Shown: positions 536-21,820 of the stretch, piece by piece
Numbering within the stretch: the stretch's first letter is position 1
Layout of the letters: each line of letters begins with the position of its first letter
Source: an uncultured Verrucomicrobiae bacterium
GTDB taxonomy: Bacteria; Verrucomicrobiota; Verrucomicrobiia; Limisphaerales; JAFGQR01
Direction: 5' to 3'
Length of the DNA: 25,002 bases
Assembly (NCBI GenBank): GCA_963788655.1
Contig: CAWBHS010000001.1
Location: 1 to 25,002, forward strand
The notes under the pieces: generated by a model
The model's input: only the letters and a program-made list of their open reading frames with translations
Databases searched by the model: none
What the model was told of the DNA's origin: nothing
Made by a program: the position numbers and the translations under genes

Positions 536-2659
536 TTATGGTTGACTGAGTTGCGATTGCAACTCCCGCAGGGCGGTCTGCAATTCAGCGGCCGAGGGAA
601 AGCGCCGGTCCGGATCGGGCGCACAGGCCCGCAGAATGACGCGATTGAACTCGACCAATTGCGCGCGGTCCGGTTGCGCAAACAGCTCGGGCGGCAATTC
701 GGGAAACGCATCCCGCGGCAAGCCCATTCCGGCTTCATAGAGGACCTTGCCGAGCGCGTAAACGTCGGCCGTCCGGCTTCCGGGTCCTTCGGGCGGCAGG
801 TAGCCGCTGGTGCCGACGTAGGAAAGATCGCTCGAGCGCCGGTCCAGGTCCGTGACCAGTCCGATGTCCGCCAATTTGGGGACGCCGTTCACGAACAGGA
901 TGTTGGACGGTTTGATGTCGCGATGAATGAGCTGGCGGCCATGCAGGAAGGCAACCGTGCCGGCGAGGTCGATGCCCAATTGCACACAAACGGACAAGGA
1001 CAGACGTTGATGCTGGCTCAGTTCCTGAGCCAGGGTTTTCGGCACATAAGTCGCGGCTTCATATTGCGGACCGGCCACCACGTCATCCGCCGCTTCCATA
1101 ATGTAATACAGGCATTCGGGCGCGGCGTGCCGGCCCACGTGCAGAATGTGGATCAAACCGGGATGCGTTCGGGAAATCGGCGTAAAACGTCGCAGTCCAT
1201 TAAACTCGCGCTCGAAAGGGGCGTCTTCGCGGAACGTATGCCGATAGACAATTTTCACGGCCAGATATGTGCCCACCAGGTCGCGCGCCAACCACACTTC
1301 CCCATACGCACCGTCGCCGATCCGCCGGAGCAATTCGTGGTTCGGTACGTCGGGCACTGCCGGTCGGTGTGCGGCGCGTCCCTGGGTGACCACCGCGTCA
1401 GACTGGGGAGAATTGCTTGGCCCGTCCGGTTCCAACACTCGTGGTGGCGCGGTGGGTGCCGTGGCGATGGTTTGGTTGGTCACGCCGGACGCCGCTTCTT
1501 CACGCGCCGCCAACAACAGGCGCAGCCAGTTGCGCTCGCGCCACAAACGGTGCGAGTGCGTGAGGACCGTCCAACCCAGTGCGCACGGAACCTGGACGAA
1601 GGCGACAATCGTCCACGGAAACCAGGTCAGGGTCTGCCACGTAAGGATGATGGCGACAACGGCAACCGCCAAAACCACGGCCACCGCCACGCCCGCCGCC
1701 GCCAACGGTCGCCGCCGCGCCAAACCAAACCCCAGCAAGCCGCCGAGCGCCAACGTCACCAAGCCCTCCATCCACCCTGGCAAGCGTCTGAGCCAATCGC
1801 CGCGGATCAGATTCAGCGTGGTGGTGGCAATGATTTCCACACCGGGCGCCCATCGTCCGGTCGAGTGTGTGTACGGGGTGCGATATTCGTCGGTGCCCGT
1901 GCCGCCGCTGAATCCGATGCTCAAGTGCGCCCCTACAAACACCAGCTTGCCGGCGAACATCGTCAGATCCAGGTTGGTGAACAGCACGTCGGCGTAACTG
2001 ACGTAGGCCAGCACCCGCCCCGGCGGTCCGTAGTAATTGATCCAGCGCTCCGCCATGGGATCGGGCAACGGCTTCACGCCAACCATTTCCGCGGCCCGCC
2101 AGCCGAGGCTGGGCACGTTAAACTGGTCATCCCGATAGTGTTGCCGAATGAATTTGGTTTCGTCACTGGCCTCGGCCAATCCCCACGGGGTCACCTCTTC
2201 CAGCGCCGGAAACGGGCGCCACACAGTGTTTTGGATCAGCTTGTGGTTGTGCGTGAGGGGACCGATCATGGCCCCCACCGCCACCTTTCCGTAATTGGTG
2301 ATGGCGCGGATTAACTCCGCATCTTCCAGGGCATTGGTGCTGGCGGGCCGGAATAGCATATCGAACACCACGGCTTTGGCGCCGGCCTGGGCCAATAGGT
2401 CGAGCAAGCGCGCATGAATTGTACGGCCCCAATTCTCCCAACTGCCCTGGTGCAACAGATCCTGGGAATGGTTGTCCATGTAGATGACGATCGCATCGGG
2501 AACAGGAATGTCCCGGCGAAAGAGAAACGCCCAATCGTAGCTCTTGTTGATCAAGCCATCCATCGGCCAGGCCAGCGCGATGAAGCCGGCCACTGCCGCC
2601 AGGAGCGCGCCTTGCGTCGCCGGATTCCACCAGCTTGTCGATGGCCCTTTCAGTTTCAT
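536..2659 (-). CDS. CHASE2-domain membrane sensor fused to a Hanks-type Ser/Thr protein kinase
   Basis: N-terminal TM segment; CHASE2 motifs (IVIYMD, WGRTIHARLLDLLAQAGAKAVVFDMLF, INYYGP, SYADVL, GKLVFVG, DEYRTP, PGVEIIA); three TM helices; then a kinase domain with IGDGAYGEVW, AVK, HRDIKPSNIL, KLADIGL, GTSGYLPPE and DVYALG. ATG at 2659 has GGAG 7 nt upstream; the ORF track starts at GTG 2671. Confidence 0.93.
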   Translation of the reverse strand: MKLKGPSTSWWNPATQGALLAAVAGFIALAWPMDGLINKSYDWAFLFRRDIPVPDAIVIYMDNHSQDLLHQGSWENWGRTIHARLLDLLAQAGAKAVVFDMLFRPASTNALEDAELIRAITNYGKVAVGAMIGPLTHNHKLIQNTVWRPFPALEEVTPWGLAEASDETKFIRQHYRDDQFNVPSLGWRAAEMVGVKPLPDPMAERWINYYGPPGRVLAYVSYADVLFTNLDLTMFAGKLVFVGAHLSIGFSGGTGTDEYRTPYTHSTGRWAPGVEIIATTTLNLIRGDWLRRLPGWMEGLVTLALGGLLGFGLARRRPLAAAGVAVAVVLAVAVVAIILTWQTLTWFPWTIVAFVQVPCALGWTVLTHSHRLWRERNWLRLLLAAREEAASGVTNQTIATAPTAPPRVLEPDGPSNSPQSDAVVTQGRAAHRPAVPDVPNHELLRRIGDGAYGEVWLARDLVGTYLAVKIVYRHTFREDAPFEREFNGLRRFTPISRTHPGLIHILHVGRHAAPECLYYIMEAADDVVAGPQYEAATYVPKTLAQELSQHQRLSLSVCVQLGIDLAGTVAFLHGRQLIHRDIKPSNILFVNGVPKLADIGLVTDLDRRSSDLSYVGTSGYLPPEGPGSRTADVYALGKVLYEAGMGLPRDAFPELPPELFAQPDRAQLVEFNRVILRACAPDPDRRFPSAAELQTALRELQSQLSQP

Positions 2660-2695
2660 GTTGCGCTCCACCGTTCCATAACTGCACTTCCGATT

Positions 2696-5600
2696 TCAAA
2701 AGGCAAACTCCAGGCGCACCGCCACCGTCCGGCCGCGCGGCAACTCGGGCGTGAGATTGAGCGGATTCAACCGGTAATCCTGGTCGGTCACGTTGAGCAG
2801 GCCCACCAACACCTCGGCACGTCGCCGCGGAAAACGGTAGCCGGCCCACAAATGGCATTGCCAGAATTCATCGCCGGGCCGCGCGCCCTCGTAGCCGTCA
2901 TTGCGCTGCCGGTACCACCAACCTTCAGCCCGGCCAAAGAATCCACGTGGATCCTGATACAAAGCGAACAATTGGAGTTGGTGCAACCCGGACTCCTGGC
3001 GTTCGGGTTCAAAGCCAAACGGAAACCGCGCGTCGCTGGGAATTTGCTCGAAGAGGTCGTGCAATTCCGCCTGACTCAGCCGGTAGCGAAGTCCCAGGGA
3101 CCAGCCGGCGCCGATCAATTGGTTCGCGGTGAACGTCAACGTGCGTTCGGTGTAGTTCAATCGTTCCCGGGTGCCGGAGGCGTTGACCGTAAACGACGGC
3201 AGAAGGTCATAGACGCCGCGCGTCCGGTTGACATCGGAGTCCAACCATTCGCCGCTCAACGCCAGATAGGTTCCGCGCCCAATTCGTTGCTCGAGTGAGA
3301 AGCCCCACGTCTCGAAGCGGGCGCCCCCGTTGGCACCGGCCACGGCTTCGGGCAGGATACTCCGAAACGCCTGGTTGAACCCCGCCACCTGCGTCGGCTC
3401 CAACTGGAAGCTTTGGTCGAACGCCACGCCGTTCAGCGCCTGCGCATAACCCGCGCGGAGGGTCGTCGTCCGAAACGGCGTCCAGATGAACCCGCCTTTG
3501 GGCGACACCTGGTCCTTCGTTTCCTCGCCTCCGTTGATCGGGGCGTAACGGAAGTTCTCGGGCATTCGCAGCCAGTCATAATTCAGCCCGGCCACCAGCA
3601 GCAGCGGATCGGCAATTTGCCAGCGATAGTAACCATAGACATTTGCCCGCCGGAAATCCGGCGTCACGTTTTGCGCGTTGGTGGGAAACAATCCGGCCAG
3701 GAACGGATAGAGCGGTACGACCGGGTGCGCGTGTTGATTCTGCGTGGCGAACGCGCCGCTCTGATACCGTGCGCCCACCGTGACGCTGTGATTGGCCTGC
3801 TGCCAGATTTGCTGGAGTTCCGCGGTGTAGATTTCCGTGTTGCTTTGGTAACGCTGCTCGAGGGTAATCGGGAGTCCATCAGTGACCTTGCCATTGACGT
3901 CCTTGGCCAACAGATAGGTGCCTTGACGCGAATTGGTCACCTGCAATTCGTCCTTCAACCGGCCCGCCAAAACGAGCGTGTGGATGCCCGGAGCCCATTC
4001 GTGATGATAGCCCGCCAGCAAAAGGGGTTGTTGGTTTTCCTGGAACCGAAATCCCGGATTCGCCTGGTTCGTGTTCTCCGGATCATAAACCGGGGTCAAA
4101 TGCCCGCCGTCGGCATCGTAATAAATCGCCTGGAAATAGAGCGTATCCTGCGGGGTCAGTTGCTGCTTTGAATTGCAATCCCAGCGTGAGTTGCTCCAAG
4201 TCGTTGTTCACGCGCTGGCCATTGCGAGACTGGTAGAACGCCTCAAGCGCATATTCCGAATTACCCCACGTGCCGAACTGCGCGCCGGACTGCGTCCAGT
4301 CACCGCGGCTGAGATATTCGGTGGCCGACACCACGCCCAGCCGATTGCGCTCGAACAGCCGGCCATATTCGTTTTGTGACACGGTCTGCGACAGCGCGCC
4401 GGCGCCGACCGGAGCCAGGAGATTGCCCACCAGGTACTCGCTCAACCACGGCGTCTCGTAGCGAAGATTGATCTGCCGGGGATCCCGCAGCGCATTGTAA
4501 CTGTTGGCCAGAAACAGGTGCGCCGAGTAATTGGCATAATCGTAATTCACCGCGCGGGCCGCTTCGCGCAGACTCACGTCGGTCATGCCGGCGTCACGAT
4601 AAACGCTGGCCAGATTGGCGCCGCGTACGGCCCGGTCCTGATCGAGCAGAAGCTGCGAGCGATAGACCCCACGATTACCAACCAGTTCCTGCGAATGCTC
4701 CAGGTCGCGCACGGCTTGATTGATCCGGTTGTGCTCCTGGTTCAACAGCGCGGAATACAACCACGCGGTCGGATCAGCCGGGTCCAGTTCCTGGCCGCGT
4801 CGCAGTTCTTTGGCGGTCTGGGCATCCAGACCTTGCTGATCAAAAGCCTTTCCCAGATAGCTGCGCAGGACCGACCGTTGCGGTTCCAGCGTGACGGCGG
4901 TCTGCAAATCGGCCAATCCCCCTGCCCCATCGCCGCGGTGAATGCGGCACAGGCCGCGTCCCAGCCACGCATTGCCCAAGGCGCCGTTCAAAGCGATGGC
5001 CCGATCGAACGCGGCGATGGCTTCGCCATAACGATTCTCCGCCGCCAGCAAGAAACCTTTCAACGCGAAGGCCTGGGCGTTGCGCGGCGACAATTCCAGG
5101 CTTCGCTCGACGGCCTTCCGCGCCGCCTTCGTATGACCAAAGCTGAACTCCAATTCCGCCAAACGCGCCTGGGCAAAACCGAAGCGCGGCGCACGCGCGA
5201 CTGCTTGACGAGCCGCTTCGAGCGCCGGCTCCAATCGCGCTTGCGCCTGCTGGTAATAGGACTCGGCGAGCAACTCGGTAGCGGTAGGAGTTGAAGGCTG
5301 AGCGCTCAGGTTTGAGGGAAATGGTCGCCGCTTGACCGCGGCGATCACCTTCCGCAACGCCACCGCCAACCACGCTGTCCGCTGACTTCCGACCTCTCCA
5401 CTCTGGCCATTGGCGGCCGGCTCCAACAGGTTCTCCGCCGGTTCGACTTGCCCCACGGTCAGTAACAGCGCCGCCAGGTAAACCCGTTCCGCATTCGACG
5501 CGGGGGCGCGGCCAGCGGGATATTGCTCGAGGGCGGCCAATAAATCCCCCGCCCGATAAGCCGCCAGCGAGCCAGCCAGCGCCGCCGGTTCGCCACCCGG

Positions 5601-6225
5601 CCAAACCAGTTCATCCGGATCCAGGATGCCCGGATAGGTACAAGACCCATTGGATGACATTCACCGCTTCGAGCCGGGGAACCTTGAACGGGATGCGTCC
5701 CGGTGCCGCCACCGCCGCTTCGCCGCTCGTGATGGAAACTGCTCCCCAATTGTTCGTGACCATGGCCTCACCGTCGATGAGGTCGAGCCGCATCGTATCA
5801 TTGGCATCGACGCTCACCGTGAATTCCGTTCCCAGCGTCAGTGCAAACGCGGTTCCTGAGTGAACTGGAAACTCGCCCCGCCGGTCACGGTGAAAGAGCT
5901 CCAGCAGCCCGCGAAACAGGTGGAACCCACTGCGGCGCGGGGCGGCTGGCGGCATCTGGAGGTGAGTGTAGTCGTCCAACCGCATCAGGCTCCGGTCCGA
6001 GAGCCGCAGGGTGGCGCGACTGTGCGCCAGAGTGCGGAGATGGTCGCCGGGCAGGAGCGTTTGGTTGGTGTGCGCCGGGGTCCAGTTCAGCACCGGGCCA
6101 TGAGCCACCTGCACGGTCCCTTCCAATTCCACCACGACGGGCCCCGGCGGTTCGGCAGCCAGCGCCGCGGTGGCCGCCAGCCAAAGCCCTGGTACCGCCG
6201 CGGCTCTGAACAGCCAGCGCCCCAT
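2696..6225 (-). CDS. FecR-domain / TPR / outer-membrane beta-barrel (TonB-dependent-receptor-like) protein, ~1175 aa, split by two frameshifts
   Basis: Three track ORFs join in order. 5611-6285: signal peptide and FecR domain (GDHLRT..SRATLRLSD.S, GTEF, LIDGEA). 4083-5660: TPR helices (FGFAQARLA, LELSPRNAQA, LNGALGNAWLGRG, LDPADPTAWLY). 2696-4099: amphipathic beta-strands ending RLEFAF, a C-terminal Phe OMP signature. Removing one extra G at ~5637 gives QWVLYYPGILD; removing one extra T at ~4168 gives LQFKQQLTPQDTLYF. Start uncertain (ATG 6225, GTG 6267 or GTG 6285). Confidence 0.88.
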
Positions 6226-6281
6226 CCGGCACCCGGAGGCACCCCAACGATGAAAATCAATAGTCACCAATCCACTCTCTA

Positions 6282-6307
6282 ACACGTTGTAAATCGCCGA
6301 CTTTTTA
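6282..6307 (-). promoter_or_regulatory. Candidate ECF-type promoter TAAAAA-N15-CGTGT for the receptor-kinase operon
   Basis: The minus strand reads TAAAAA (6307-6302), GTCGGCGATTTACAA, CGTGT (6286-6282). Same elements and spacing as the sites at 6338 and 19677. Confidence 0.6.
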
Positions 6308-6408: not shown

Positions 6409-9400
6409 ATGAAACCAACAAACCGCATCGCATCTGCAATTCTCAATTCATTGTTGCCCACGGGACGGAAGGACTCATGGATCACCCGCGGTCTAACAAA
6501 AGTTCTACGCCCCCTAACCACCCCGCTTAGCTTGCTAACTGCCGGCCAACTCACGCTCTGTCTCTTCGCTGGTTCACCTGCCACCGTCGAAGCAGCCGAT
6601 CTTTCGTTGGCAGAAGCATTGGAGGATGCCAACCTCGCCTGGACCACCGGGGGCCAAGTTCCATGGTATGGCCAACAGATTGTCAGTCACGATGGAGCCG
6701 ATGCCGCCCAAAGTGGGATCATTGCTGATGCGCATGAATCCTGGCTGCAAACCACGGTCGTCGGACCGGGGACCTTGGAGTTCTGGTGGCAGGTGTCGTC
6801 GGAGCAGGATTTCGACTGGCTCCGCTTTCACATCGACGACGTGTTGAAGGAGCAAATCTCCGGCGAAGTGGATTGGCAACAACAGCAATTCGCCATTCCG
6901 GAAGGGAGTCACACGCTGGAATGGCGATATGTTAAGGACCCAGCGGATAGCGCCGGCCAGAACCGAGGATGGCTGGACCAAGTTTCCTTCGTGGCCGCCA
7001 CCGGCGGCCCGATGATCGCAACCCAACCCGCCAGTCAGACAGTTTGGGAGGGAGCCAACGTGTCGTTCACTGTCACCGCCCTCGGCAGTCCGCCCATGAG
7101 CTATCAATGGTTCGTTAACGGAACGCCCGTCCCCAGTGCCACAAACCTCACCCTGGCCCTAGCCACTATTCTCCCGGCCAACGCAGGTAGCTATCGCGTC
7201 GAGGTCAGCAATGATGCCGGCACCGTCACCAGCAGCCCGGCAGTTCTGACTCTCGGGAATAACGCCCCAGCGAACCAGATTCTGCTCTATGTAGATAGCC
7301 CGGTCCCTAGCCCTTTTGAAATCGCTCTGCTCAACCTGGGCTTCGACTACCAGCGTTTCACGTCTGCATCCGAGTTCACTTCGGCACTGAACAACGCCAA
7401 TCGCGATACCGACCTCGTAATCGTCGATCAACCTGGTAACTTCTTTACGCCCACCAGCCTCGTCAGCTTCATCAACGGTAGAGGTCGTGCCCTGATCCAG
7501 GCCAACACTCTGGCCGGCAGTCCCGCCCTCGCCACCGCCCTTAAGGTCGCCGTGGACTGGCGCTCCAATACGCCAATTTCCGTTTACGAATGGGGTGGCT
7601 CTCCGCTTTTCGAGGGACTATCCGGTCCTTTGAATCGGACCGAAATCGGCCTCGATGAGGATACCCAGAGGCTTCAGGTCGTCCCCGGAGGTTACGCTGT
7701 CGCCGGATTCTCCGCGGCAACCACGCCTGGGGAGGCGGCCATCGTCGTTGGCAACAACGGGCGAACCATCGTCAACGGGTGGTGGTTAGCTGGAATCATC
7801 TCTGGAAACGACGCTGTCCGGCTCGCTGAAAACCAAATCCTGTTTCTCACCGGACCCGTCTCCGCCACCACCCCCATCATCCAAATTCAACCGCGCAGCC
7901 AGACACTGCTGCCGGGAGGCAGCGTGCATCTGGACGTGAGAGCATCTGGAGGCTTGCCGCTGAGTTACCAATGGTACAAGGACAGCGTTGAACTCCCTAA
8001 CGCCACCAGCGCCTCACTCGACATCAGCAACATCCAGGTCGAAAATGAAGGCAATTACACCGTCGTCGTCGCCAACAGCTACGGCTCCGTGACTAGCGAT
8101 CCGGCCAGCCTGTCACTCCTCATCAAGCCCACCGGCCAGATCGCAAGCATCTTGTTGTTTACGGACACGTTCCTGGGAGTTCCCAGTCCCTATGAGACTG
8201 CGCTTACCGAGATGGGCCTGAACTTTCAACGCTTCACTTCGGCGCCAGCTTTTGCGGCCGCGGTGAGCCAGGCGAATCACAACAACACCCTGCTCATCAT
8301 CGCGGCTATCGACAGCTTCTACGATTTTACCAGCACAGCAAACTTCATTAGTGCTGGGGGGCAGGCCATTGTTCAGGATCCTGGGCGCTGTTGTCGGATT
8401 CCAGCGGGCTCGCCAGCGCCCTTGACGTCACGGCCGTGCAGGATATCCGATTCGTCGAGCCGGTTTATGAATGGGGTGCCACGCCTTTCTTCAGGGACTT
8501 GCCGAGCCCTGTCAACTTGACCGACCGCTTCGGAGGGGATGGGCAACTTCTTCAACCGGCCCCGAACGCGGCAGCAGCGGCAGGATTTGTGGACGCACCA
8601 ACCCAAAATCAGGCGGCCCTTGTTGTAGGCAACAGCGGGCGCACCATCGTCAACGGATTCGCAATGGAAGAGATCACCTCCGCCGCCGAGGCCGTCCAGT
8701 TCGCCCGGAACCAAATCGAGTATTTTGTGCCACTAGCCCCGGAAATCGTAACCCAACCGGAAGATCAAGTCGTGGTCTTGGGCGGCACCGCGAATTTCAA
8801 TGTGGCGGTGGCCGGAGCTCAACCGTTGAATTACCAGTGGCGCAAAGACAATATTGATATCCCCGGCGCCGAGGGCAGCGCGTATTCCATCACCGGCGTT
8901 CAATCGAACCATTACGGCAATTACAGCGTGGTGGTAACCAATAGGTTTGGCGTGGTGACAAGCCGGCTGGCCAAGCTGGATTGGGGGCTCAAGCCTGAGA
9001 TCATTCAAGCTCCCTTGAGCCAATCCATCGTCGAGGGAGGGAACATCACTTTCAGTGTGGAAATAGTGGGGCATCCTGCACCTTTCACCTACCAATGGCG
9101 GCGCAGCTCCACCATCCTGACCAACATCGAGTCCGACGAACGCCACGCTTTCTTCACCTTGAATGATGTGGAATCGAATCAAGGCGGACTTTATCGCTTG
9201 GTGATTATCAACGCCGTTGTGCCCGTGGTAACCGGCTCGTCCCCCAATGCCACTTGGACGCTGACCGTTCTCCCCGACACCGATGGCGATGGCCTGCCCG
9301 ACGAATGGGAAGCGGAACATCTGGTGGATGATCCCAACGGCGATCCCGACAGGGATGGAATGACCAACCGCGAGGAATACGAGGCCGGGACCGATCCCAA

Positions 9401-9638
9401 CGAGCCGGACAGCACTTTGCGGATTGAACCCCTCGATCCGTTGGGCAGTGCCGCCATCGAGTTCCAGGCCATTTCGAACAAAACCTACACCGTGCAGTAC
9501 CTCGATGAGGTGGGCCGTGGCTCATGGTCAAGATTGGCCGATGTCGTGGCCCGAACGACCAACCGCGTGGAGGTGATTTACGACCCGAGGAACGCCGCGC
9601 GGCGCTACTACCGCGTGGTGACCCCCAGACAGGAATGA
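6409..9638 (+). CDS. Large secreted Ig-domain protein (~1076 aa) with a duplicated alpha/beta domain, DxDxDG Ca-binding motifs and the shared C-terminal domain; one frameshift
   Basis: ORFs 6409-8520 and 8391-9638 join via a single missing base at ~8377. Order: extended signal peptide; Trp-rich beta-sandwich (GPGTLEFWWQVSSE..DWLRF..HTLEWRYVKD); Ig I-set-like (QPASQTV..YQW..GSYRVEVSN); alpha/beta domain 1; Ig; alpha/beta domain 2; two Ig; DTDGDGLPDEWE / DPDRDGMTNREEYEAGTDPN; C-terminal domain ending RRYYRVVTP. Confidence 0.85.
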
Positions 9639-9649
9639 GGATATCCAGC

Positions 9650-9673
9650 GCCTGCCGCAAGGCAGGCCTCTTT
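9650..9673 (+). terminator. GNRA-loop hairpin between the first two operon genes (weak terminator or mRNA-stabilising stem)
   Basis: GCCTGCC-GCAA-GGCAGGC (9650-9667) followed by CTCTTT, 11 nt after the stop codon at 9638. Confidence 0.45.
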
Positions 9674-9695
9674 GGCAATCTATTGCAATGACATC

Positions 9696-12600: not shown

Positions 12601-13001
12601 CGGGCTTCGGCGAAGGCGCGGCTACGTTGGGACTGACCAACGTGATGACCGATAGTGGCGGCGCGGCGGATTTTACTCTGACGTTTCCCACTGGGGTGGC
12701 GATCGGGCAGTACGTGACGGCGACCGCAACCGATCCGTTCCTGAACACGTCCGAATTCTCCGCGTGCGCACCAGTTGTGCCGGCGGACGGCGCCCCGCGG
12801 TTGGCTATTGCAAACTCGGAAACCGCGCTGATCATTTCGTGGGCGGAAGCCACCGGGTATCAGCTTTATTGGGCGACGAATCTGAGCCAGCCAATCCTTT
12901 GGCATGTCGCGACCAACACGGTACAATCGCTCAATGGCACCAACGCGGTATCCATCGAATCCAAGGCCGGTAACAGGTTCTTCCGGCTGTGCAATCCATA
13001 A
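9696..13001 (+). CDS. Secreted right-handed parallel beta-helix repeat protein (~1100 aa) with the shared C-terminal domain; about nine frameshifts
   Basis: Signal peptide MKHYRSVALITVAIAGSASGA, then VSNTNDSGAGSLRQAIIDAN. About 12 repeats of ~60 aa (N[VI]ISGN...GN[FY]IGTD.TG..ALGN) continue across track ORFs 9672, 9991, 10341, 10654, 11108, 11452, 11553 and 11925. These are followed by a TPNDVGDADTGANELQN..FTLEFF..TATATD..NTSEFS module and a C-terminal domain ending NRFFRLCNP. Frame switches at ~10023, 10277, 10584, 11039, 11330, 11513, 11811, 11852 and 11895. Confidence 0.85.
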
Positions 13002-13009
13002 ACTGAAAC

Positions 13010-16000
13010 ATGGCAACAACCCACCCCCATCAGCAAGTTCGTGGTGTGCGCCGGGGCCGCGATTGCTTGAGATGCGCCGGGATTGGCGGAGTTCTTTTAG
13101 CGGTCACTTTGTTCACCAGAGTATCATGGGGAGCAGAAAGCGGGACCACGCAACTCACGGTTGTCAATCCCACGGCGATCAGCATTCCGACGAATAACGC
13201 CGGCCCAGCCACTCCGTATCCGTCCACGATCAGCGTTACCGGCCTGACGGGTTTCATCAGCCACGTTTCGGTGACGATCAGCAACCTGAGCCACACCTGG
13301 CCCAGCGACGTGGACGTGTTGTTGACCTCGCCCGCCGGGCAAGGGGTAATACTCCTGTCCGACGCCGGTTCGGATCATTCGATTACCTACGTCACGCTGA
13401 CTTTCGACGACGGTGCTCCGAAGACGCTACCCAAATCCAGCCGCATTGTTTCCGGGCGCTATAAGCCGACCAATCATTCCGGCGATGATTTCTTTCCGGC
13501 TCCGGCTCCGGACGGTCCTTATGGCGCGTCGCTGTCCGTATTCAACGCTTACGATCCCGACGGCCTATGGCGGCTTTACGTGGTGGATTCCGAACCGGGT
13601 GATGGCGGAGCCATTGCTGACGGATGGAGCCTGACGATCACCGTGACCAATCAGCAGGCGCTTCCGTCAATTAACATTAGCGATCCGGTGCTCGAGGAGG
13701 GGCAAAGCGGCATTACCAATGCAGTGTTTATCGTCAGCCTTTCCTCGACCAGCAGCCTGCCGGTGGCAGTGGATTATGAAACCGCCGATGGCACGGCGAC
13801 CGCCAATACGGATTATGTTCCACAAACCGGAACAATCCTTTTTCCGCCCGGAAGCCTCGAACAAACCGCCCTTGTGCCCGTGATCGGCGACATTCTTTTC
13901 GAGCCGCACGAGACGTTCTTCCTGCTGCTCAGTCAACCGACGAACGCCATCCTTGCCGACGCCATCGGAATGGCGACCATCCGCAACGACGATTCGCTGC
14001 CGTTGGCCGATGCGTTTGCCGAACGCCCGGTCGTGAGCGGCATCTTGCTCACGATGATCGGCTTCAATACCGGCGCCTCCCGCGAACCGGGCGAACCGGA
14101 GCACGCCGGGAATCCCGGGGGCGCGTCCGTTTGGTGGTCCTGGCGGGCGCCGGCGGCGGGTGGGGTGAATGTCTTCTTTGGAGCCAGCACCTTCAATCCC
14201 CTGCTGGCCGTCTATACCGGTGAGTCTTTGTCCTATCTGGCCCTGGTGGCGGACAATCGCGCCAGCGCTGGCTTCACCGACCAGTTCCACTTCAATGCCG
14301 TAAGCAACATGACATACATCTTTGCCGTGGATGGTGTGGATGGCCAAACCGGGGACTTCATCCTTCAACTCGGGTTGCGGCCCGGTCAGTTCTACATGTC
14401 CAGCGAAGCGGGCGCGGAAGTTTGGGTGCCGAACGGACCGGTCCTGGCGCTGGCCGAGCTGGACGACGTCATTTATCTGGGCGGCGAGTTCACCCATCTG
14501 AGTCCGAACGTGGGGAAAGGTGAGTTGTGGGAGACGGTTTCGGGCCTCCCGGTGCCGGGTTTTCCCCGAGCCAACGGGCCGATCTACACGGCCGTTCCGG
14601 ACGGACACGGTGGCTGGTTCCTGGGTGGCGAATTTACCCAACTCGGGGAGACCGGTCGGACCAACCTGGCGCATCTCCTCCCCGGCAACGTTGTGGATCC
14701 CAATTGGCCGCCGTGGACGGACGGTTTTGTTTTCGAACTGGTCCTGGCGAGCGACCGGCTCTACGTCGGCGGATCGTTCACCAATTTCTCCGGCCTGGCG
14801 CGGTGGAACCTGGCCGCTGTGGACCCGGGCACGGGCACGGTCACCGATTGGCAACCCGTTGTCCGGCACGCGCTGGAACCGGAGGTTGGAGCTGCGGTCC
14901 GCGCCATCGCCGTTGCCGGCAACACGGTTTTTGTTGGAGGAACGTTCACGGAGGTCGGCCGACAACCACGATCCAGTCTCGCCGCCTTGGATGCTTCGAC
15001 GGGCCAGGCTACGGCATGGAACCCGGCTCCGGCAGCGGCTGAAGGCGTCGTGATTCATGCTTTGGTGGTCCATGACGAAACCGTCTTTGTCGGCGGCAAA
15101 TTCACCTATATCGGAGGACAGCCACGGAACAACTTGGCGGCGCTGGATATCCAATCCGGCCTTGCCACACCATGGGCCGCTTCGGCGGACGCTCCTGTGC
15201 TCACCCTGCAATCCTCGTGCAATACGTTGTATTCGGTGGGGAATTTGCCTCCGTGGATGGCCAACCGCGCAACCGGCTTGCCGCCGCGTGGCTGAGTGAT
15301 GGCAGCGTAACGCCGTGGAATCCGAATATCACTGGTGCACAGGTCTCGCGCATCGTTCTTGATCAAGACCTGCTTTATGCCGGCGGCGCCTTCTCTGAAG
15401 TGGCTGGAGCGCCGCGTGATAATGTTGCGGCGGTGGACACAGCCACAGCCCTGCCCACCCCGTGGAATCCCGGAGCCGGTGTCGCCGTCGAAAGCCTGGC
15501 CGTCGCGGCCGGGAACGTTTTTGTGGGAAGCGTCCATGACCGTGGCGGTGTGGTCCGGCATAATCTGGCCGCCATCGATGCTCGCACCGGACAACCGGTG
15601 GCGGATTGGAACCCGGACCCCGACGGACGGGTGACCGCGTTGTCCCTTGCCGGCGGCAACCTCTACTTCGGCGGCGACTTCACCACGGTCGGCGGCCAGT
15701 CCCGCGAACGGCTCGCCGCGGTGCGCACCGCGACGGGTGAATTGACCGATTGGAATCCCGGCGCCAACGCCACCCCGTTGGCCATTGTCGCCGGAACGGT
15801 CTTCGTGACCGTGGGGGGCCGGTTCACCTTTATTGGCGGCTCCGGCAGCGCCTACGTGGCGACGCTGGACGCAACGACCGGAGCGCCGGCGCGTTGGTCG
15901 CCGACCCCCAACGGTGAAGTCCACTCCCTCCACCTCGAAATCGGTTCTTTGTATCTCGCCGGTCAATTCACCCAAGTCAACGGTTACAGTCGTCCGGGAT

Positions 16001-18626
16001 TTGCCGCGGTGGATTTGCACAATGAACAAGTGTTGTCATGGGACCCGCAGATTCAGGGCGGCGCCGCGGTGGGCGAAGCGGTCCGGGTGTTTGCGTCGCC
16101 GGCGTACCTGGCGGGCTCATTTACCACCGTGCGAGGTGAACCGCGCCTGAACGTGGCTGCCGTGGACAAAGCCACGGGAGTTGTCCTCCCGTGGAATCCA
16201 GTGGTGGAACCGGCGGGCCGTGGCGTGACGACTCTGGCCCAGTCGAAAGCCTTCTTCTATGTCGGCGGAAACTTCGATCATGTCGGCGGCCAACCGCGCA
16301 ACGGCCTCGCCGCCATTGAAGATCTCTCCGGAGCGACGACCCCGTGGAATCCGCAGCTCAAGTCGCCGGTGCCTGGCACGGTGGTTTCCGCCCTGAACGC
16401 GAGCGTCGAGCGGGTGGAGGTGGGCGGCGCCTTCACCACCATCGGCGGACGGTTTTCTCCCAATTTCGCCATCTTTCCGCCGGAAGGAGTGCCGCGAATC
16501 GGGCGCGAGCCCCGCGACCAGATTCTGCCCGTGGGAGATACGATCCAACTGCAAGCTGAGGTGAGTGGCCAGCAACCGCTCGTCTTTCAGTGGCAGTTCA
16601 ATGGCACCAACCTTCCCCATGCGGTCACTGACCGACTGGAAATTCCGAACGCCCAGGTCGAACACTCGGGGGAATACACGCTGATCATTGCCAATGGACT
16701 GGGCCTCACGCGGACGCGGGTCGCGACGGTCGTGGTTTACACGCCGATCGCCATCACCGCCGATCCGATCAGTCAGGTGGTCTCGCCCAACGCCACGGTT
16801 CATCTCGCCGTCTCCGCCACTGGCGATCCCGCGCCAACCTACCAATGGCGCCTCAATGGCGTGAACATTCCCGGAGCCGTTTATCCCACCTACACCATCA
16901 CCAATGCCCAGCCGGCCGATGGTGGCAGCTATGATGTCGTGGTCGTCAATATCGGCGGCGCCGTGGCCAGCGCGGTCGCCACCGTGATCATCACCAGCCC
17001 GACCCTCGATCTCGAAGATGATTTCACCAATCGCGTGACCTTTGTTGACGCGACCGGATTGGGAGCAGCACCAACGGCTTGGCCTCCCAGGAAGTCGGCG
17101 AACCCAATCATGTCGGCAAGTTCGGCGGCAAATCCGTGTGGCTCGGTTGGATCGCGCCCGCCAACGGCATCGCCACGTTCAGCACCAGGGGCAGCACGTT
17201 CGATACGTTGCTGGCCGTTTACACCGGCACCAATTTGGACGCGTTGACCGTCGAAACCGGCGATGAAGACCGCGGCGGTTTCTTGACCAGCGAGGCTTCC
17301 TTCAACGCCGCGGCCGGCACCCATTATGCCATCGCCATCGACGGGTTTGCCGGCGCTTCGGGCCACATCGTGCTCAGTTGGAGCCTGGACACCAATGCCA
17401 TGCCCTTCCCGCACATCATCAGCGAGCCGCTCAGCCAAACCCACTTTCGCGGCGACACCGTTACGTTCGCGGTGGTCGTCGATAATCCGGCAGTGACTTA
17501 CCGATGGTATTTCGGTTGTGATTCGATATCCGGGGCGACCAACGCTCAGTACACCATCGCCAACGTTCACCCAGAGAATGTAGGCGGCTATCACGTCGTG
17601 GTGCAAAACGCTTCTTCGTACGTGGCCGAGAGTTTGTAGCGTTCCTGGAAATTGGTCCCGAGCCCAAAGCCTTGTCCCTTGACAAACCCGAAGACTTGCT
17701 GTTCGGGCTTGCCCCAGGCGGCGCGGGCGGCCAGCGCCGGGCCGGCGCGTCGCTGTTCACTGCCGGTGCAGCCGGCGGCTTTATCTCGGTGGCCATGGGC
17801 ATCACCGATTCGCAACTGCTGGACAACACCGACGCGGTCACCCAACCCGGCGAGCCCATTCGCTGCGGCGTGCTGGGCGGCGCCTCGTTGTGCCTGGTGA
17901 TCCAACCGCAGGAAAGCGGCGCGGTGGAAGTGGACACCTTGGGCAGCGCCATCGATACGGTGCTGGCCGTCTATCACTGGACCAATCTGTTCGCTTTGTA
18001 CTCGGGCCTGCTCGACTGCGATGACAACAGCGCCGACGGCCTTCGCAGCCGGTTGGTGTTCAACGCCAAGCTCTGGAGTATTACCTGGTGGTCGTGGACG
18101 GCGTGAACGGCGCGCGCGGCCCGATTGAGGTGAACTGGCACTGTGGGCGAGGCCCCGAGCCGATCCGGGACCGCCGCACGCTAATGCAATCGGATGGCCG
18201 GCATCTTGTTGGTGGCCCGGTCACCAATGCGGTGCCCGCGGTGACCTACCAATGGCTGGTAAACGGAACCGCGATTGTGGGGGCGACCAACGAGACCTGG
18301 GCCGTGCCGGGGCTGACCGGCACGGCCGGCACCTACAGTTTTCGCGCAGACAACTTCGCGGGAAGTTTGGAGGGCCCGTCGCGGTGCTGCTGGCCTTGCG
18401 TTGCGAATTGGACCAGGAAGCGGGCGTCGTGCGGGTGCGCTGGCCCGACGGGATCACTGGGCCGGCGGTGCTGGAGGGTTCAACCGATTTGGACGCGTGG
18501 GAGACAATGCAGGAAATCACGCCGATGGAGGCTGCCGGCATCCAGGAGGTCCCGATTGCGGACGAACGTCTGCAGTTCTTCCGCGTGCGTCCGTTGCCGG
18601 AAGCAACCAGCGTTCAACCCAAATGA
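13010..18626 (+). CDS. Giant secreted modular protein (~1870 aa): proprotein-convertase P-domain-like, Calx-beta, three PPC-like domains, 14-blade beta-propeller, Ig domains, shared C-terminal domain; at least five frameshifts
   Basis: ORFs 13010, 15172, 17079, 17672, 18088 and 18252 join through single missing bases at ~15232, 17062, 17633, 18069 and 18376. Motifs: PYPSTISV..LSHTWPSDVDVLLTSPAG..GLWRLYVVD (P-domain-like); VAVDYETADGTATANTDY..ETFFLLLSQPTNA..TIRNDD (Calx-beta); EPGEPEHAG..SVWWSWRAP..LLAVYTG..AVDG (PPC-like, x3); [YF][VL]GG.FT..G..R..LAA.D..WNP (x14); QWQFNG and YQWRLNG (Ig); ends LQFFRVRP. Confidence 0.85.
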
Positions 18627-18729
18627 ACGATCCGGAACGGGATCGTGATGAATGCGATGGAAATCCGAAACCCGAGGTCCGAAATGGACCTTGCGCACGC
18701 CTTACATCCTTTGGAGTCTCAATACCGGA

Positions 18730-18911
18730 TGGTAGGGCGAGACTCCGTCGAGCCCTGATTCTTCCGCATCGTTTTCGAACCATTGGAGGCCGGAACCGCG
18801 GTCGGCCACCGGCAGTCTCATGGCCGAGCGCCAGTCATTTCCCATCGATCGCTTTTGGGCTTTTGAACGCACTCCGGGGAAATCAGGGCTCGACGGAGTC
18901 TCGCCCTACCA
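18730..18911. repeat. REPIN/MITE-like element: perfect 31-bp inverted repeats around a 120-bp spacer (family B)
   Basis: 18730-18760 (TGGTAGGGCGAGACTCCGTCGAGCCCTGATT) is the exact reverse complement of 18881-18911. GTAG lies near the outer ends. Located between convergent stop codons (18626 and 18927). Confidence 0.9.
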
Positions 18912-18926
18912 GAGCGCCCGGCCTCG

Positions 18927-19610
18927 CTAGAACAATTCTGCTTTCAAACTCCGAACTTCCTGACGCAGGAGATGGGTGATTTTGTATTTGGCGAAATAAA
19001 CCTGGCTGAGTTTGACGCGCAGACTTTGAACGACCCGCTGGGCCGGCCACTGTTGCAACACGTGCAGTTGGAACATTTGATAATGGGCCGGGTCGGCGTG
19101 ACGCTTCACTCGCTCAAGCGCGATGGTCATCAGGTTCTGCTCCCAATCGGCTTCCCAGATGGCGTCGAGATCGAGACTGGCCGGATCCGGCAGCCGATCC
19201 GTGGTGGAGGTGTGGGCAGTCTCCCCCGGCGCCCGCAGTCGGTGCGACATGCCGGGCGGGCGTTTGCGGAGTTCATCGGTGATGCGCCAGCGGGCCAGCT
19301 TAAGCAACCAGCCCTTGAACGAACCGTGTTGGGCGCCCACCTCGAAGTTCCCAATGTTGCGCGCCACGGACACCAGAGTTTCCTGCAGGACGTCTTCCGC
19401 CTCTGCGTCGGTCAGGCCGGCTTTCCGGGCGGTATTGACAATGAGCCGGCCGTACAATTGGGAGAATTCGGCCCAACTGGCGCCGTCCTCCCAATTCTTC
19501 AGCCGCTGCAACAGGCTTGCCCGGGTGGGCAACCGTTCAAACGCCGGTGAAGACTGAACCGGCGGTGCGGACGCCCGCGCATCCTCCTGCTCTTCGATTG
19601 AGTTGTTCAT
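18927..19610 (-). CDS. ECF (group 4) sigma-70 family RNA polymerase sigma factor
   Basis: Region 2: PTRASLLQRLK..SWAEFSQLYGRLI..EAEDVLQET..GSFKGWLLKLARWRITDELRKR. Region 4-like C-terminus: ALERVK..YQMFQL..PAQRVVQSL..SQVYFAKYKI. The N-terminal TRxSLLxRL motif is typical of Planctomycete/Verrucomicrobia ECFs. ATG 19610 preferred; the track starts at TTG 19658. Confidence 0.93.
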   Translation of the reverse strand: MNNSIEEQEDARASAPPVQSSPAFERLPTRASLLQRLKNWEDGASWAEFSQLYGRLIVNTARKAGLTDAEAEDVLQETLVSVARNIGNFEVGAQHGSFKGWLLKLARWRITDELRKRPPGMSHRLRAPGETAHTSTTDRLPDPASLDLDAIWEADWEQNLMTIALERVKRHADPAHYQMFQLHVLQQWPAQRVVQSLRVKLSQVYFAKYKITHLLRQEVRSLKAELF

Positions 19611-19676
19611 ACGCGCATCGTTCGTTGATTCAGCCACGTTTCCCGTCCATTCGCTCAAAAGTTTTCGATATATTTT

Positions 19677-19702
19677 TAAAAAGTAAAGCTTTTCTTCCGT
19701 GT
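19677..19702 (+). promoter_or_regulatory. Candidate ECF-type promoter TAAAAA-N15-CGTGT upstream of the triple-domain protein, divergent from the sigma gene
   Basis: TAAAAA (19677-19682), GTAAAGCTTTTCTTC, CGTGT (19698-19702). With the 6337-6363 site it shares the longer pattern TTAAAAA-N13-TCCGTGT. Confidence 0.6.
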
Positions 19703-19801
19703 ATTCCTTAGCCGACGGTGTCGTGCCGGCGGCTCACAGCGAACAACCATCAACCTAACCAACTCAGGCGCAACGGCGCCGGGAAGAAAAAAGGATAAAT
19801 T

Positions 19802-21820
19802 ATGAAAAATCGAATGCTGGCTTCCGCGCAAAAACATCGCGCTGGTGGCCTTCAACTGATTGTGGCCACTGGATTTCTCTGGTTCGCCATGTTGTCTCCA
19901 GGGTGGGCGAAGGAACCTCACCATCCGAAGATTGTGCCCCCCGGCAAGAAGGTGCATGGCAAGACCTACGACCAGTGGGCCGCCCAGTGGTGGCAGGATC
20001 TGTTTGCGATTCCCGTGGTGAATGGCGATCACCCGTTTTTCTCCGGGGGCACATTCGGCGGGGACCATAAAGTAGTGTTTCTGACGGGTGTGGGCGGCCC
20101 CACCACCGTCGAGATCAATCTGCCCAAAGACACGGCGATCTTCTTCCCGGTGCTCAACTCCGAGTGCTCGGTGCTGGAGGACCCGCCGTTCCATGGGGAT
20201 GACGAAGCCTCACTACGAGCCTGCGCGAACAGCTACCTCGATCATGCGGTCAGCCTCTTCGCCGAAATTGATGGGGTTCCCGTCGAGCACCTCGAAGCCT
20301 ATCGCAGCGGATCGCCCTGGTTCGAGTTCGGGCCGTTGCCGGAGGGCAACCTCTTCGGGGTGCCGGCGGGCACCACGTCCCTCTCGGTGGAGGCGGGCAT
20401 CTATCTGTTCCTGGAACCGTTGCACGACGGAACGCACACGATCCATTTCGGCGGAAGCACTTCGGGGTCGGCGTCCGACTTCGCGATCGACACCACGTAT
20501 GTCGTTCACGTTGGGAAAAAGGGAAAGGGCCTGGTCGTGCCGCCCGACAAAAAAGTGGAAGGCAAGACCTACGGCGACTGGGCGAATGCCTGGTGGCAAT
20601 GGGTGATGGGCATTCCGGCGGACCGCAACCCGTTGACCGATGAGACGGGCGAGTTTTGCGGGGAAGACCAACACGGTCCGGTGTGGTTTCTGGCCGGCAC
20701 GTTTGGGAACTCGGTGGAACGTACCTGCCAGATGCCCAAGGGCAAACGCATCTTCATGCCGGTGTTCAACTGGATCTTTGGCGCCGGCGTGTTCGACTGT
20801 GATCCGACGGTTCCCGGCGTGCCGTGCGATGTGGCCGGGTTGCAACAATTGGCGGCGGAACAAACCGAAAAGGCCGAGGTGCTCGACGTGACCATTGACG
20901 GGATGTCAGTCCCGAACGTGCGGGACTACCGGGCCAGTTCGCCGAAGCCCTTTGCTCTCAAATATCCGGACAACTCCGTCACCGGCGTGCCGAAGGGCAA
21001 GTATTCTCCGCAGGTGACCGACGGTTACTGGTTGATGCTCGAACCGCTGCCCGAAGGGGAACACGAAATCCGGATCCACGTCAGCGCCCCGGACACCGCG
21101 TTCGGTCTGATCGAGTTCGACATCATCACTCATCTTACGGTGGGCAAACCCAAGAAGGCCCACGTGGTCCCGCCGAAGGCCAAGTACCGCGGGCTGAGCT
21201 ATGGCGAATGGTCGGCCGAGTGGTGGAAATGGTGCTTCAGCCTGCCCGCGGACAGACACCCGTTGTTCGACACCGCCGATTCCAGCGCCGGCCAGTCGGG
21301 GAACGTCTGGTTCCTCGGCGGCACCTTCACGCTGATCGAAGATGAGGACGGTTCGGCGTCCGGGGTGGTGACGCGCGATTGCACCGTTCCGAAAGGTACG
21401 GCGTTGTTCTTCCCGATCCTGAATACCGAATGTTCCACCGTGGAAGGCAATGGCGATACCGAAGCAGAACTCCGTGACTGCGCGGCCTTTTATGGCAGCG
21501 CGGCCATGAATCCCGATTCCAATCTGCAATGCACCATTGATGGCATGCCCGTGAAGGATCTGGATCACTATCATGTGCAGTCGCCGGCATTTATGTACGG
21601 ACCGCTGCCGGAGGACAACATCCTGCAGGCCCTGGGCTTGGACGTGCCGGCGGGCACGACGTCGTTATCGGTGAGCGACGGTATCGATGTCATGCTCGAA
21701 CCTTCGTCCGCTGGTCGCCATACCATTCACTTCTCGGGCAGCGGCATCTATACCGAGGCGGAACACGGCTTTGATTACGTGTTCCATCTGGACATCACCT
21801 ACCACGTGACCGTCGAGTAA
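19802..21820 (+). CDS. Secreted hypothetical protein, 672 aa, with three tandem copies of a ~200-aa Trp/Cys-containing domain
   Basis: Signal peptide ending PGWA. Repeats start at ~19928, 20531 and 21161 and share VPP..K..G.[TS]Y..W...WW, V[VW]FL.G, [IL]F.P[VI].N, IDG..V, Y...SP.F, [AD]G....LEP...G.H.I and D[TI].. . AGGA lies upstream of the ATG. No frameshifts. Confidence 0.9.
   Translation: MKNRMLASAQKHRAGGLQLIVATGFLWFAMLSPGWAKEPHHPKIVPPGKKVHGKTYDQWAAQWWQDLFAIPVVNGDHPFFSGGTFGGDHKVVFLTGVGGPTTVEINLPKDTAIFFPVLNSECSVLEDPPFHGDDEASLRACANSYLDHAVSLFAEIDGVPVEHLEAYRSGSPWFEFGPLPEGNLFGVPAGTTSLSVEAGIYLFLEPLHDGTHTIHFGGSTSGSASDFAIDTTYVVHVGKKGKGLVVPPDKKVEGKTYGDWANAWWQWVMGIPADRNPLTDETGEFCGEDQHGPVWFLAGTFGNSVERTCQMPKGKRIFMPVFNWIFGAGVFDCDPTVPGVPCDVAGLQQLAAEQTEKAEVLDVTIDGMSVPNVRDYRASSPKPFALKYPDNSVTGVPKGKYSPQVTDGYWLMLEPLPEGEHEIRIHVSAPDTAFGLIEFDIITHLTVGKPKKAHVVPPKAKYRGLSYGEWSAEWWKWCFSLPADRHPLFDTADSSAGQSGNVWFLGGTFTLIEDEDGSASGVVTRDCTVPKGTALFFPILNTECSTVEGNGDTEAELRDCAAFYGSAAMNPDSNLQCTIDGMPVKDLDHYHVQSPAFMYGPLPEDNILQALGLDVPAGTTSLSVSDGIDVMLEPSSAGRHTIHFSGSGIYTEAEHGFDYVFHLDITYHVTVE

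Follow-up and report, generated by a model that had tools for sequence, protein, structure and literature searches.

In a 25,002-b stretch of DNA (the window), we found a candidate signalling locus made up of genes for an outer-membrane receptor of the FecR-TPR-barrel type, a Hanks Ser/Thr kinase with a CHASE2 sensor domain, and an extracytoplasmic function (ECF) sigma factor, accompanied by five genes, A to E, for secreted proteins. The window is the whole of contig C1 (CAWBHS010000001.1) in assembly GCA_963788655.1 from an uncultured Verrucomicrobiae bacterium (JAFGQR01). We propose that the three proteins form a relay that runs from the receptor through the CHASE2 kinase and the ECF sigma to three promoters of large secreted-protein and sensor genes, and we give this reading a probability of about 0.55. 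It builds on gene content, a receptor gene that is whole barring assembly errors, the modelled fold of an orthologous receptor, the kinase motifs, the co-location and trees of kinases and sigmas in relatives, and the uniqueness of a promoter-like motif. From these we infer the steps from receptor to CHASE2, from kinase to sigma and from sigma to promoter.

The NsrA-type receptor, with its periplasmic FecR domain, TPR solenoid and plugless 22-strand barrel, would perceive something at the cell surface. Its periplasmic part would act on the CHASE2 domain of the co-transcribed inner-membrane kinase, which would then phosphorylate an anti-sigma-free ECF sigma encoded 16 kb away. The sigma would direct RNA polymerase to three locus-private promoters with the motif TAAAAAKT-N13-CGTGT. 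The promoter of the sensor operon would give positive feedback, and the other two would drive the A-B-C operon and gene D, perhaps also gene E. The features of the proposed relay are these:

2696..6225, minus strand: NsrA-type outer-membrane receptor with signal peptide, FecR, TPR solenoid and 22-strand barrel (Pfam, tblastn, AlphaFold2 model of the orthologue L031)
6225-5629, 5636-4167 and 4168-2696, minus strand: the three reading frames of the receptor gene, separated by two single-base breaks
536..2671, minus strand: CHASE2/Hanks Ser-Thr kinase, intact, likely start ATG 2659 (Pfam)
18927..19610, minus strand: monocistronic ECF sigma of a kinase-linked verrucomicrobial subfamily (Sigma70_r2, TIGR02937, sigma tree)
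6282..6307, minus strand: motif 1, TAAAAAGT-N13-CGTGT, ~57 nt upstream of the receptor start codon
6338..6363, plus strand: motif 2, TAAAAATT-N13-CGTGT, 46 nt upstream of gene A
19677..19702, plus strand: motif 3, TAAAAAGT-N13-CGTGT, 100 nt upstream of gene D

The receptor and the CHASE2 kinase

Pfam placed a FecR domain (5611-6285), a TPR region (4083-5660) and TonB_dep_Rec_b-barrel (2696-4099) in three abutting minus-strand open reading frames (ORFs). Intact homologues covered these pieces in successive frames as residues 53-224, 222-701 and 701-1183 (tblastn). As the homologues aligned across both junctions without loss, we read the pieces as one receptor gene of ~1175 codons with two single-base breaks, at ~5629-5636 and at 4167/4168; one of the breaks falls inside a conserved ...QWVLYYPG... 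stretch. The Pfam matches and the homologue alignment agree with an initial annotation of this DNA, which had placed a FecR-TPR-barrel gene directly upstream of a CHASE2-kinase gene; on the minus strand the two genes run from 6225 to 2696 and from 2659 to 536. The receptor stop lies 25-37 nt ahead of the kinase start. The N-terminus of the receptor is a signal peptide (MGRWLF...ALAAEP) with the FecR domain directly after it. With the breaks attributed to assembly, the protein has the NsrA-type layout, a single chain of ~1150-1250 aa with signal peptide, FecR, TPR and C-terminal barrel.

The predicted receptor fold comes from an AlphaFold2 model of the orthologue L031, built on a 45-row alignment (pLDDT 85.5, pTM 0.82). 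The model showed an N-terminal hydrophobic helix, a FecR beta-sandwich at residues 55-207, ~24 helices of the TPR region (239-618) and a barrel of 22 strands (644-1182). In Foldseek, the best matches to the modelled barrel were TonB-dependent transporters such as OprC, FptA and FecA (E ~1e-14; target-normalised TM-score ~0.55). The window receptor gave no Pfam Plug match, and in the model the barrel directly follows the TPR region. Neither the window receptor nor the model contains a cytoplasmic anti-sigma domain.

Proteins with the same FecR, TPR and barrel build are numerous: at least 3646 database proteins of 1130-1280 aa share it (E<=1e-20), most of them annotated just as 'TonB-dependent receptor' or 'TPR protein'. 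Over FecR and TPR, the receptor matched Sinorhizobium/Ensifer megaplasmids in 29 records (E 1e-9 to 6e-14). At the Ensifer megaplasmid locus, a 1222-aa FecR-TPR protein, which we take to be NsrA, is followed immediately by a CHASE2 adenylate cyclase. The same receptor type adjoins CHASE2 cyclases in the window's own genome, on contigs C88 and C87. It adjoins a CHASE2-kinase in the window and at 7 further same-order loci, six of them retrieved loci and one on own contig C23.

The kinase gene encodes CHASE2 at residues 27-313 (PF05226, E 4e-30; 105.6 bits against a cut-off of 26.3) and Pkinase at 447-649 (E 1e-23). Judged by eye, CHASE2 is flanked by transmembrane segments, in the order N-terminal transmembrane helix, periplasmic CHASE2, three transmembrane helices and cytoplasmic kinase. 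The kinase motifs are all present (GDGAYG 452, AVK 471, HRDIKPSN 583, DIG 602 and PPE 626), and the catalytic positions were invariant or nearly so in a 46-row kinase alignment. The kinase domain is 49-52% identical to the sigma-adjacent kinases on own contigs C72 (kinase-WD40) and C73 (kinase-TIR). Its identity to kinases of the genome other than CHASE2-fused and sigma-adjacent copies is at most 29%. In a kinase-domain tree, CHASE2-fused and sigma-adjacent kinases fell into one 99-supported clade, apart from the rest.

Two kinds of variant were seen in passing. A TIR-fused, sigma-linked kinase paralogue on own contig C73 (C73:9403-11016, L047) lies beside a paralogue of the window sigma. Triple fusions of adenylate/guanylate cyclase, CHASE2 and Ser/Thr kinase, 900-960 aa long, were found at L033:8234-11053 (G021:C28) and in P0179, P0181, P0203 and P0236; in such proteins one CHASE2 sensor would drive two different outputs.

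The ECF sigma factor

The sigma ORF (18927-19658, minus strand) matched TIGR02937 over residues 62-232 at 47.1 bits (cut-off 42.9) and Sigma70_r2 at E 7.6e-10. It consists of sigma2 and sigma4 alone, as in ECF (group 4) sigmas. The ECF sigma had been described as having no neighbouring anti-sigma gene, and this stood: no anti-sigma family matched in the 24 window ORFs scanned, a set that leaves outside the short ORFs over a repeat in the gap beside the sigma. A paralogous sigma is encoded with the kinase-WD40 gene on own contig C72.

The sigma2.2 region of the window sigma reads L-T83-D-A-E86-A-E-D89-V-L-Q92-E93 and retains the acidic ExxDxxQE motif. Among 27 subfamily members, the first acidic position was kept in 25 and the second in all 27, as was QE (QD in two). 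A Ser/Thr stands ahead of the acidic motif in 20/27. A linker Thr (...R-T-x-x-V-E-R-x-P-D-P) was present in 25/27; in the window it is T150 counted from TTG or T134 from ATG. The uncharged sigma2.2 of the ECF43 group, with its QTTA consensus, is not found in the window sigma. Since the acidic region is kept, the EcfP-type switch does not apply as such, and the regulatory phosphosite would be expected, by analogy with T106 of EcfK, at the linker Thr T150, or at T83 just before the acidic motif, instead of at an EcfP-type sigma2.2 site.

Kinase and sigma in related genomes

We retrieved 80 species-level loci with the CHASE2-kinase alignment, 47 of which were CHASE2-kinase fusions (L063 and L031 are one locus under two ids). 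A receptor gene was adjacent in 15 of the 29 species-level fusion loci with enough upstream DNA, and a sigma lay within 1 kb in 7 of the 42 fusions having downstream DNA. All three genes occurred at six loci: L063 (= L031), L064, L065, L066, L103 and L109. Five of these (L031, L064, L065, L066 and L109) were receptor-kinase-sigma tandem operons, and at L103 ~5.5 kb lay between the kinase and the sigma match. The three genes thus come within ~5.5 kb in at least six species-level genomes, five of them with a tandem arrangement. Elsewhere in the same order, G021 has the layout kinase-sigma-receptor, and in G036 the sigma diverges from receptor-kinase.

The link was also seen outside the fusions and from the side of the sigma. 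Non-fused kinase rows had a sigma within 1 kb in 22/34 cases, and among 12 verrucomicrobial loci of the species collection the sigma was immediately upstream of the kinase in nine, the other three having no upstream DNA. In 41 same-order genomes, 37 of 54 sigma-subfamily matches had such a kinase within 10 kb (24 within 2 kb). Two sigma-subfamily genes, at L054 (G028:C659) and L057 (G005:C73:50000-69999), lie directly beside FecR-TPR-barrel genes with no adjacent CHASE2-kinase, and at L057 the gene after the sigma encodes a hybrid histidine kinase. The association of receptor and sigma may extend beyond the link to the kinase.

When 48 full-length CHASE2-kinases were placed in a tree, the window kinase formed a five-member clade with those of L063, L064, L066 and L067 (support 94 in the Shimodaira-Hasegawa-like approximate likelihood ratio test, SH-aLRT). 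All four of the other members have a sigma 45-258 nt downstream of the kinase. The kinases of L065 and L109, sigma-adjacent too, fell in the same 99-supported set. A first sigma tree of 15 rows was unresolved. In a 58-row tree, the sigmas beside these kinases made up a 99-supported clade of seven, with the window sigma as its sister (SH-aLRT 83). Kinase and sigma are therefore adjacent in the window's nearest relatives and 16 kb apart in the window itself, and the simplest reading of the sequence is that the window holds what would be a cognate kinase-sigma pair split by the 12-kb A-B-C operon. The neighbourhood synteny that the initial annotation set as a test came out in favour for the kinase clade of the window (4/4), but over the fusions at large only 8/42 had a sigma within 9 kb.

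A promoter-like motif private to the locus

Three copies of TAAAAAKT-N13-CGTGT lie in the window, whereas shuffles predict 0.01 and 0 of 100 shuffles reach three; the 8.96-Mb genome has no further match. Each copy points to a gene start 46-100 nt off, namely that of the receptor operon, gene A or gene D, so that the motif proposed earlier in front of the sensor operon and two output units was confirmed. The 13-nt spacers are unlike one another, and the copies are therefore no recent duplication of intergenic DNA.

Relatives of the locus carry elements of similar build. In their sigma-kinase operons, a T-run followed by GAAAGAT-N11-CGTCCGA lies just upstream of the sigma, with 6 strict matches in 15 upstream regions and further near-variants seen by eye; like the window motif, this element combines an A-rich -35 with a CGT -10. 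Its consensus, GAAAGWW-N11-CGYMCGA, matched one unrelated site in the window's own genome and none in the window, and the window motif is therefore alike in build, not identical. A weak GAAACGT-N11-CGAACGA just ahead of the sigma ATG, seen by eye, was dropped as too near the start codon. The strict window motif and its small variants were found in 40 loci only once, in the unrelated Lentisphaerota locus L014.

Look-alikes of the window motif were present immediately upstream of the receptor gene at L031 (TAAAAATC-N12-CGAAT), L064 (TAAAACTC-N13-CGTAT) and L109 (TAAAAAGC-N13-CGAAT), with a near-match at L103 (TAAAAATC-N12-CGTAG). A relaxed pattern covering them matched 3 times in 1.6 Mb of other loci and 14 times in the other 8.9 Mb of the window's genome. 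Because it is so rare elsewhere, its occurrence by chance at the same spot of three to four orthologous operons is unlikely, though the pattern is post hoc. ECF sigmas are usually autoregulated. As the sigma is the last gene in the three-gene operons, the motif would give sigma autoregulation there; the window copies would feed back on the sensor operon, not on the sigma.

Secreted proteins and repeats

Coding is continuous over 6409-18626 (plus strand) with ~14 frame changes, as judged from the G+C of third positions and the overlap of open frames. Within it, genes A, B and C, a 12-kb operon that separates the sensor pair from the sigma, are delimited by stop codons after which a new signal-peptide-like N-terminus begins. 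The sigma gene converges on C, and D and E run divergent from it. With frame breaks followed and N-termini judged by eye, A to E all begin in a signal-peptide-like manner, in line with the five large exported proteins listed by the initial annotation, which ended at 21820, short of E. The adhesin- or matrix-like role that it gave such proteins is putative.

6409..9638, plus strand: gene A, secreted protein with Ig domains and TSP3, C-terminal ...YYRV; one frame break at ~8352-8520
9696..13001, plus strand: gene B, secreted beta-helix repeat protein, C-terminal ...FFRL (Pfam Beta_helix/NosD); ~8 frame breaks
13010..18626, plus strand: gene C, secreted P-domain/Calx-beta/beta-propeller/Ig protein, C-terminal ...FFRV; ~5 frame breaks
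19802..21820, plus strand: gene D, secreted protein with three ~215-aa repeats, of no known family
22046..24415, plus strand: gene E, secreted beta-propeller (Rax2/DUF5122 repeats), C-terminal ...FYRL, outside 536..21820
18730..18911, no strand: inverted repeat with 50-nt arms 82 nt apart, between convergent gene C and sigma; a genome-wide repeat family
21868..21937, no strand: hairpin with a 23-bp stem, separating gene D from gene E; member of a second family of palindromic repeats found genome-wide

In gene B, beta-helix repeats lying in different frames matched each other. Gene D matched neither Pfam nor NCBIfam and lacks a paralogue in its own genome; its nearest Atlas clusters were hypothetical proteins of 230-250 aa (scores 0.95-0.96). 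A, B, C and E share a ~70-aa C-terminal domain that closes in (F/Y)(F/Y)R(L/V), at 9420-9638, 12790-13001, 18400-18626 and 24200-24415. This domain had no Pfam match and may serve these bacteria as a signal for protein sorting or anchoring.

Two palindromic extragenic repeats are spread through the genome: GGTAGGGCGAGACTCCGTCGAGCCC with 156 half-sites on 44 contigs (<=3 mismatches) and GCCGCCGACGTGAGGAGGC with 278 half-sites on 74 contigs (<=2 mismatches). Such repeats occur in the gap from gene C to the sigma, in that from D to E, and ahead of the sigma paralogue on C73. The inverted repeat at 18730..18911 may terminate transcription in both directions.

The ends of the contig probably fall within a gene that is repeated or varies between strains. 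Its terminal 480 b (24522-25001) code for part of a protein with 97.5% identity to C55:42684-42205, and its initial 140 b (3-143) gave a 47% match to the adjoining part of the same C55 gene. Relatives retrieved through the window proteins were all Verrucomicrobia of the Pedosphaera/Limisphaerales type.

Assembly quality and alternative explanations

The assembly consists of 115 contigs (8.96 Mb, 59.6% G+C, completeness 86%, contamination 5.6%). The ~16 frame breaks of the window, 2 in the receptor and ~14 in genes A-C, could be taken to mean that the locus is decaying and that the receptor and giant genes are true pseudogenes, the more so as gene B is broken more densely (~8 per 3.3 kb) than the kinase, D and E (0 per 6.7 kb). 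However, rpoB lies in 3 pieces and rpoC in at least 5, with the frame changing between pieces (C45:51013-58956), and frame changes were found in 4 of the 6 receptor paralogues of the own genome. Homologues span the receptor breaks without sequence loss, and third-position GC bias runs unbroken across every break of the window. Because the essential rpoB and rpoC are broken likewise, the window breaks are errors of a noisy assembly, not gene decay, and true pseudogenes are scarcely credible here. Across the genome, about one frame-breaking indel per kb was seen, essential genes included, so that gene calls and 'pseudogenes' anywhere in it are unreliable; the indels possibly depress its completeness estimate.

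Several observations weigh against the proposed relay, and many of them would fit a receptor and CHASE2-kinase that form a sensing pair with other substrates, next to an unrelated sigma controlled, for example, by its own transcription. In 34/42 CHASE2-kinase fusions no sigma was found within 9 kb, and most CHASE2-kinases therefore work without an adjacent sigma. G026 and G031 (96% complete each) hold a CHASE2-kinase and no sigma-subfamily match at E<=1e-15, and at L034, a locus from the same genus, 20 kb contain no sigma, though the contig stops 311 nt beyond the kinase. A distance of 16 kb separates sigma and kinase in the window, where both lie on the same strand, and no motif copy precedes the sigma gene. 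Of the sigma matches, 17/54 had no kinase within 10 kb, some adjoining glycosyltransferases or transposases, and the best identity matches of the window sigma (48-50%) include sigmas without a kinase match on the contig. The window sigma sits on a long branch (1.25) with a support of just 83 for its sister placement, and the trees come from quick IQ-TREE runs in which SH-aLRT was the sole measure of support. The window sigma also has the acidic sigma2.2 motif absent from ECF43 and EcfP, and its linker Thr is no specific evidence, since sigmas with no kinase close by conserve it equally. Yet among CHASE2-kinases, only the clade of the window kinase has a sigma directly downstream in every other member, the window sigma is closest to the clade of those very sigmas, and through the motif the sensor operon is linked to the gene next to the sigma. 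We consider an unrelated sigma unlikely.

The shared motif might also not be the promoter of the sigma but a target of some other DNA-binding regulator, or else an AT-rich promoter element read by the housekeeping sigma. An AAC in the -35 is typical of many ECF promoters; it is lacking in the -35-like part TAAAAAGT, and the motif overlaps a TTTTTAAAAA palindrome (19673-19682). The absence of the motif ahead of the sigma gene points the same way. In addition, no clean match to the relaxed pattern, which was written once the orthologues had been seen, was found in L065, L066 or L067, and L034, with the same divergent layout, has no motif in its intergenic DNA. Against a different regulator stand the two-part build of the motif with fixed 13-nt spacing and a CGT -10-like element, the orientation of 3/3 copies to a gene with none elsewhere in 8.96 Mb, and the look-alikes ahead of receptor-kinase-sigma operons at three to four orthologous loci, as for an autoregulated ECF. 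A motif foreign to the sigma appears distinctly improbable.

It is very doubtful that the FecR-TPR-barrel protein is instead an outer-membrane export or anchoring part for the neighbouring giant proteins, with kinase and sigma merely tuning supply. Such a role would agree with the transporter-like barrel and with the giant secreted-protein genes that adjoin the receptor gene in the window and on own contig C87; the L031 operon with the receptor also holds a >2072-aa LTD/Calx-beta protein, and at L034 a divergent gene for a 3329-aa secreted protein lies beside the receptor. But large secreted proteins are common all through these genomes, and this receptor type is also partnered by CHASE2 cyclases without the need for a giant gene. 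The constant partner is the CHASE2 sensor domain (15/29 loci). In S. meliloti, the receptor is needed for signal perception according to the available text of PMC7529298.

Meaning of the proposed relay

To our knowledge, NsrA-CyaK is the sole studied case of CHASE2 signal reception and rests on genetics in one symbiont, and direct sigma phosphorylation has been shown for two ECF43 proteins only, both without the acidic sigma2.2 surface. The locus and its relatives unite these two signalling schemes in a compact conserved operon, to which the window adds a small, apparently private promoter set. In a heterologous host, the system opens two processes to direct testing: how a signal would cross between the outer and inner membranes with neither TonB nor proteolysis, and how a kinase would control a sigma presumably already competent to bind core polymerase. 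It also suggests that the outputs of such pathways in Verrucomicrobia are a handful of large secreted surface proteins.

More tentatively, and with the odds somewhat against it, the locus may represent a third kind of cell-surface signalling without TonB or anti-sigma, in which the receptor gates a CHASE2 kinase and phosphorylation of the linker Thr switches an ECF sigma that bears the acidic surface. If this were true, sigma phosphorylation would be a general mode of control well beyond ECF43, and the 'FecR-like anti-sigma factors' of ECF267 would be misread outer-membrane receptors of the same kind.

Comparison with known systems

The sensor pair most resembles NsrA-CyaK/CyaD1/CyaD2 of Sinorhizobium meliloti. 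In the available portions of PMC7529298 and PMC13001267, NsrA is an outer-membrane barrel protein required for signalling via CHASE2 cyclases. Both systems have a ~1200-aa outer-membrane protein with a C-terminal barrel whose gene lies directly upstream of that for an inner-membrane CHASE2 protein. In contrast to NsrA-CyaK, the output here is a Hanks kinase, not a cyclase, with a proposed sigma downstream in place of cAMP/Clr, and identity to the rhizobial proteins is 21-25% only. Related pairings of a periplasmic FecR-domain partner with a CHASE2 receptor are described, in the excerpts available, from Burkholderia, where a LysM-FecR protein shares an operon with a CHASE2 histidine kinase (PMC5192318), and from Campylobacterota, where a FecR outer-membrane protein, a TPR protein and a CHASE2 cyclase form a cluster (PMC9239204). 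Their outputs are a histidine kinase/response regulator or cAMP, with no sigma.

The kinase-sigma half resembles EcfP-PknT (Vibrio parahaemolyticus) and EcfK-PknS (Xanthomonas citri) of ECF43, likewise anti-sigma-free ECFs linked to membrane Hanks kinases. In ECF43, the acidic DxxDxxQE of sigma2.2 is missing (QTTA consensus) and a Thr there is phosphorylated, according to the relevant parts of PMC13147305 and PMC8999054; the first of these adds that EcfK also needs linker phosphosites and that T106 contacts RpoC. The conserved linker Thr of the window subfamily is like the EcfK phosphosites in lying in the sigma2-sigma4 linker. Unlike ECF43, the window sigma and its relatives keep the acidic sigma2.2, and the kinase domain is C-terminal behind CHASE2, whereas in ECF43 partners the kinase domain is N-terminal and the sensor C-terminal. 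The union of NsrA-CyaK and EcfP-PknT logic put forward by the initial annotation is thus supported in part, by synteny, trees and the private motif, while its EcfP-type switch does not apply as such.

Other kinase-associated groups are ECF59-62 and ECF217 of Planctomycetes, listed beside ECF43 in the part of PMC7826278 at hand, and a review (PMC8999054, in the section available) notes that non-ECF43 groups retain the acidic motif. ECF59, 61, 62 and 217, the third with WD40 kinases, share with the window subfamily the order of sigma then kinase at +1, the lack of an anti-sigma and membership of the Planctomycetes-Verrucomicrobia-Chlamydiae superphylum. They differ in being described solely from Planctomycetes as far as the available accounts go, and are likened here by gene order and description; the examined portion of the supplement of Casas-Pastor et al. 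makes no mention of a CHASE2 or outer-membrane partner for them.

FecA-FecR-FecI shares with the present locus a FecR-type periplasmic domain, a 22-strand barrel like that of TonB-dependent transporters and an ECF sigma output. The window differs from it in having no plug, no separate inner-membrane FecR with an anti-sigma domain, no transducer with plug and signalling domain, and no proteolytic release. FecR is fused to the barrel protein here, and the kinase replaces the anti-sigma.

No description of a CHASE2 kinase coupled to an ECF sigma was found in the literature searched. The initial annotation knew of no description of the full combination, but this has to be qualified by ECF267, for which the available part of Casas-Pastor et al. 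2021 reports, in Sorangium and Chondromyces, that the sigma has a FecR-like TPR protein at +1 and is also surrounded by protein kinases; which of these regulates the sigma is left open by the authors. The window and the three-gene loci, compared by this described context, likewise have a FecR-like TPR protein and kinases near the sigma. In contrast to the window family, ECF267 is confined to myxobacteria, its FecR-TPR protein is read as an anti-sigma, and CHASE2 is not mentioned in that part of the source. A FecR-TPR protein with a signal peptide and an outer-membrane barrel, as in the window family, cannot hold a sigma in the cytoplasm. Both halves of the proposed relay are thus already known, from NsrA-CyaK and from the kinase-linked ECFs, and ECF267 is a partial precedent that covers the gene combination, not the present reading, because the FecR-TPR protein here is exported and ends in an outer-membrane barrel.

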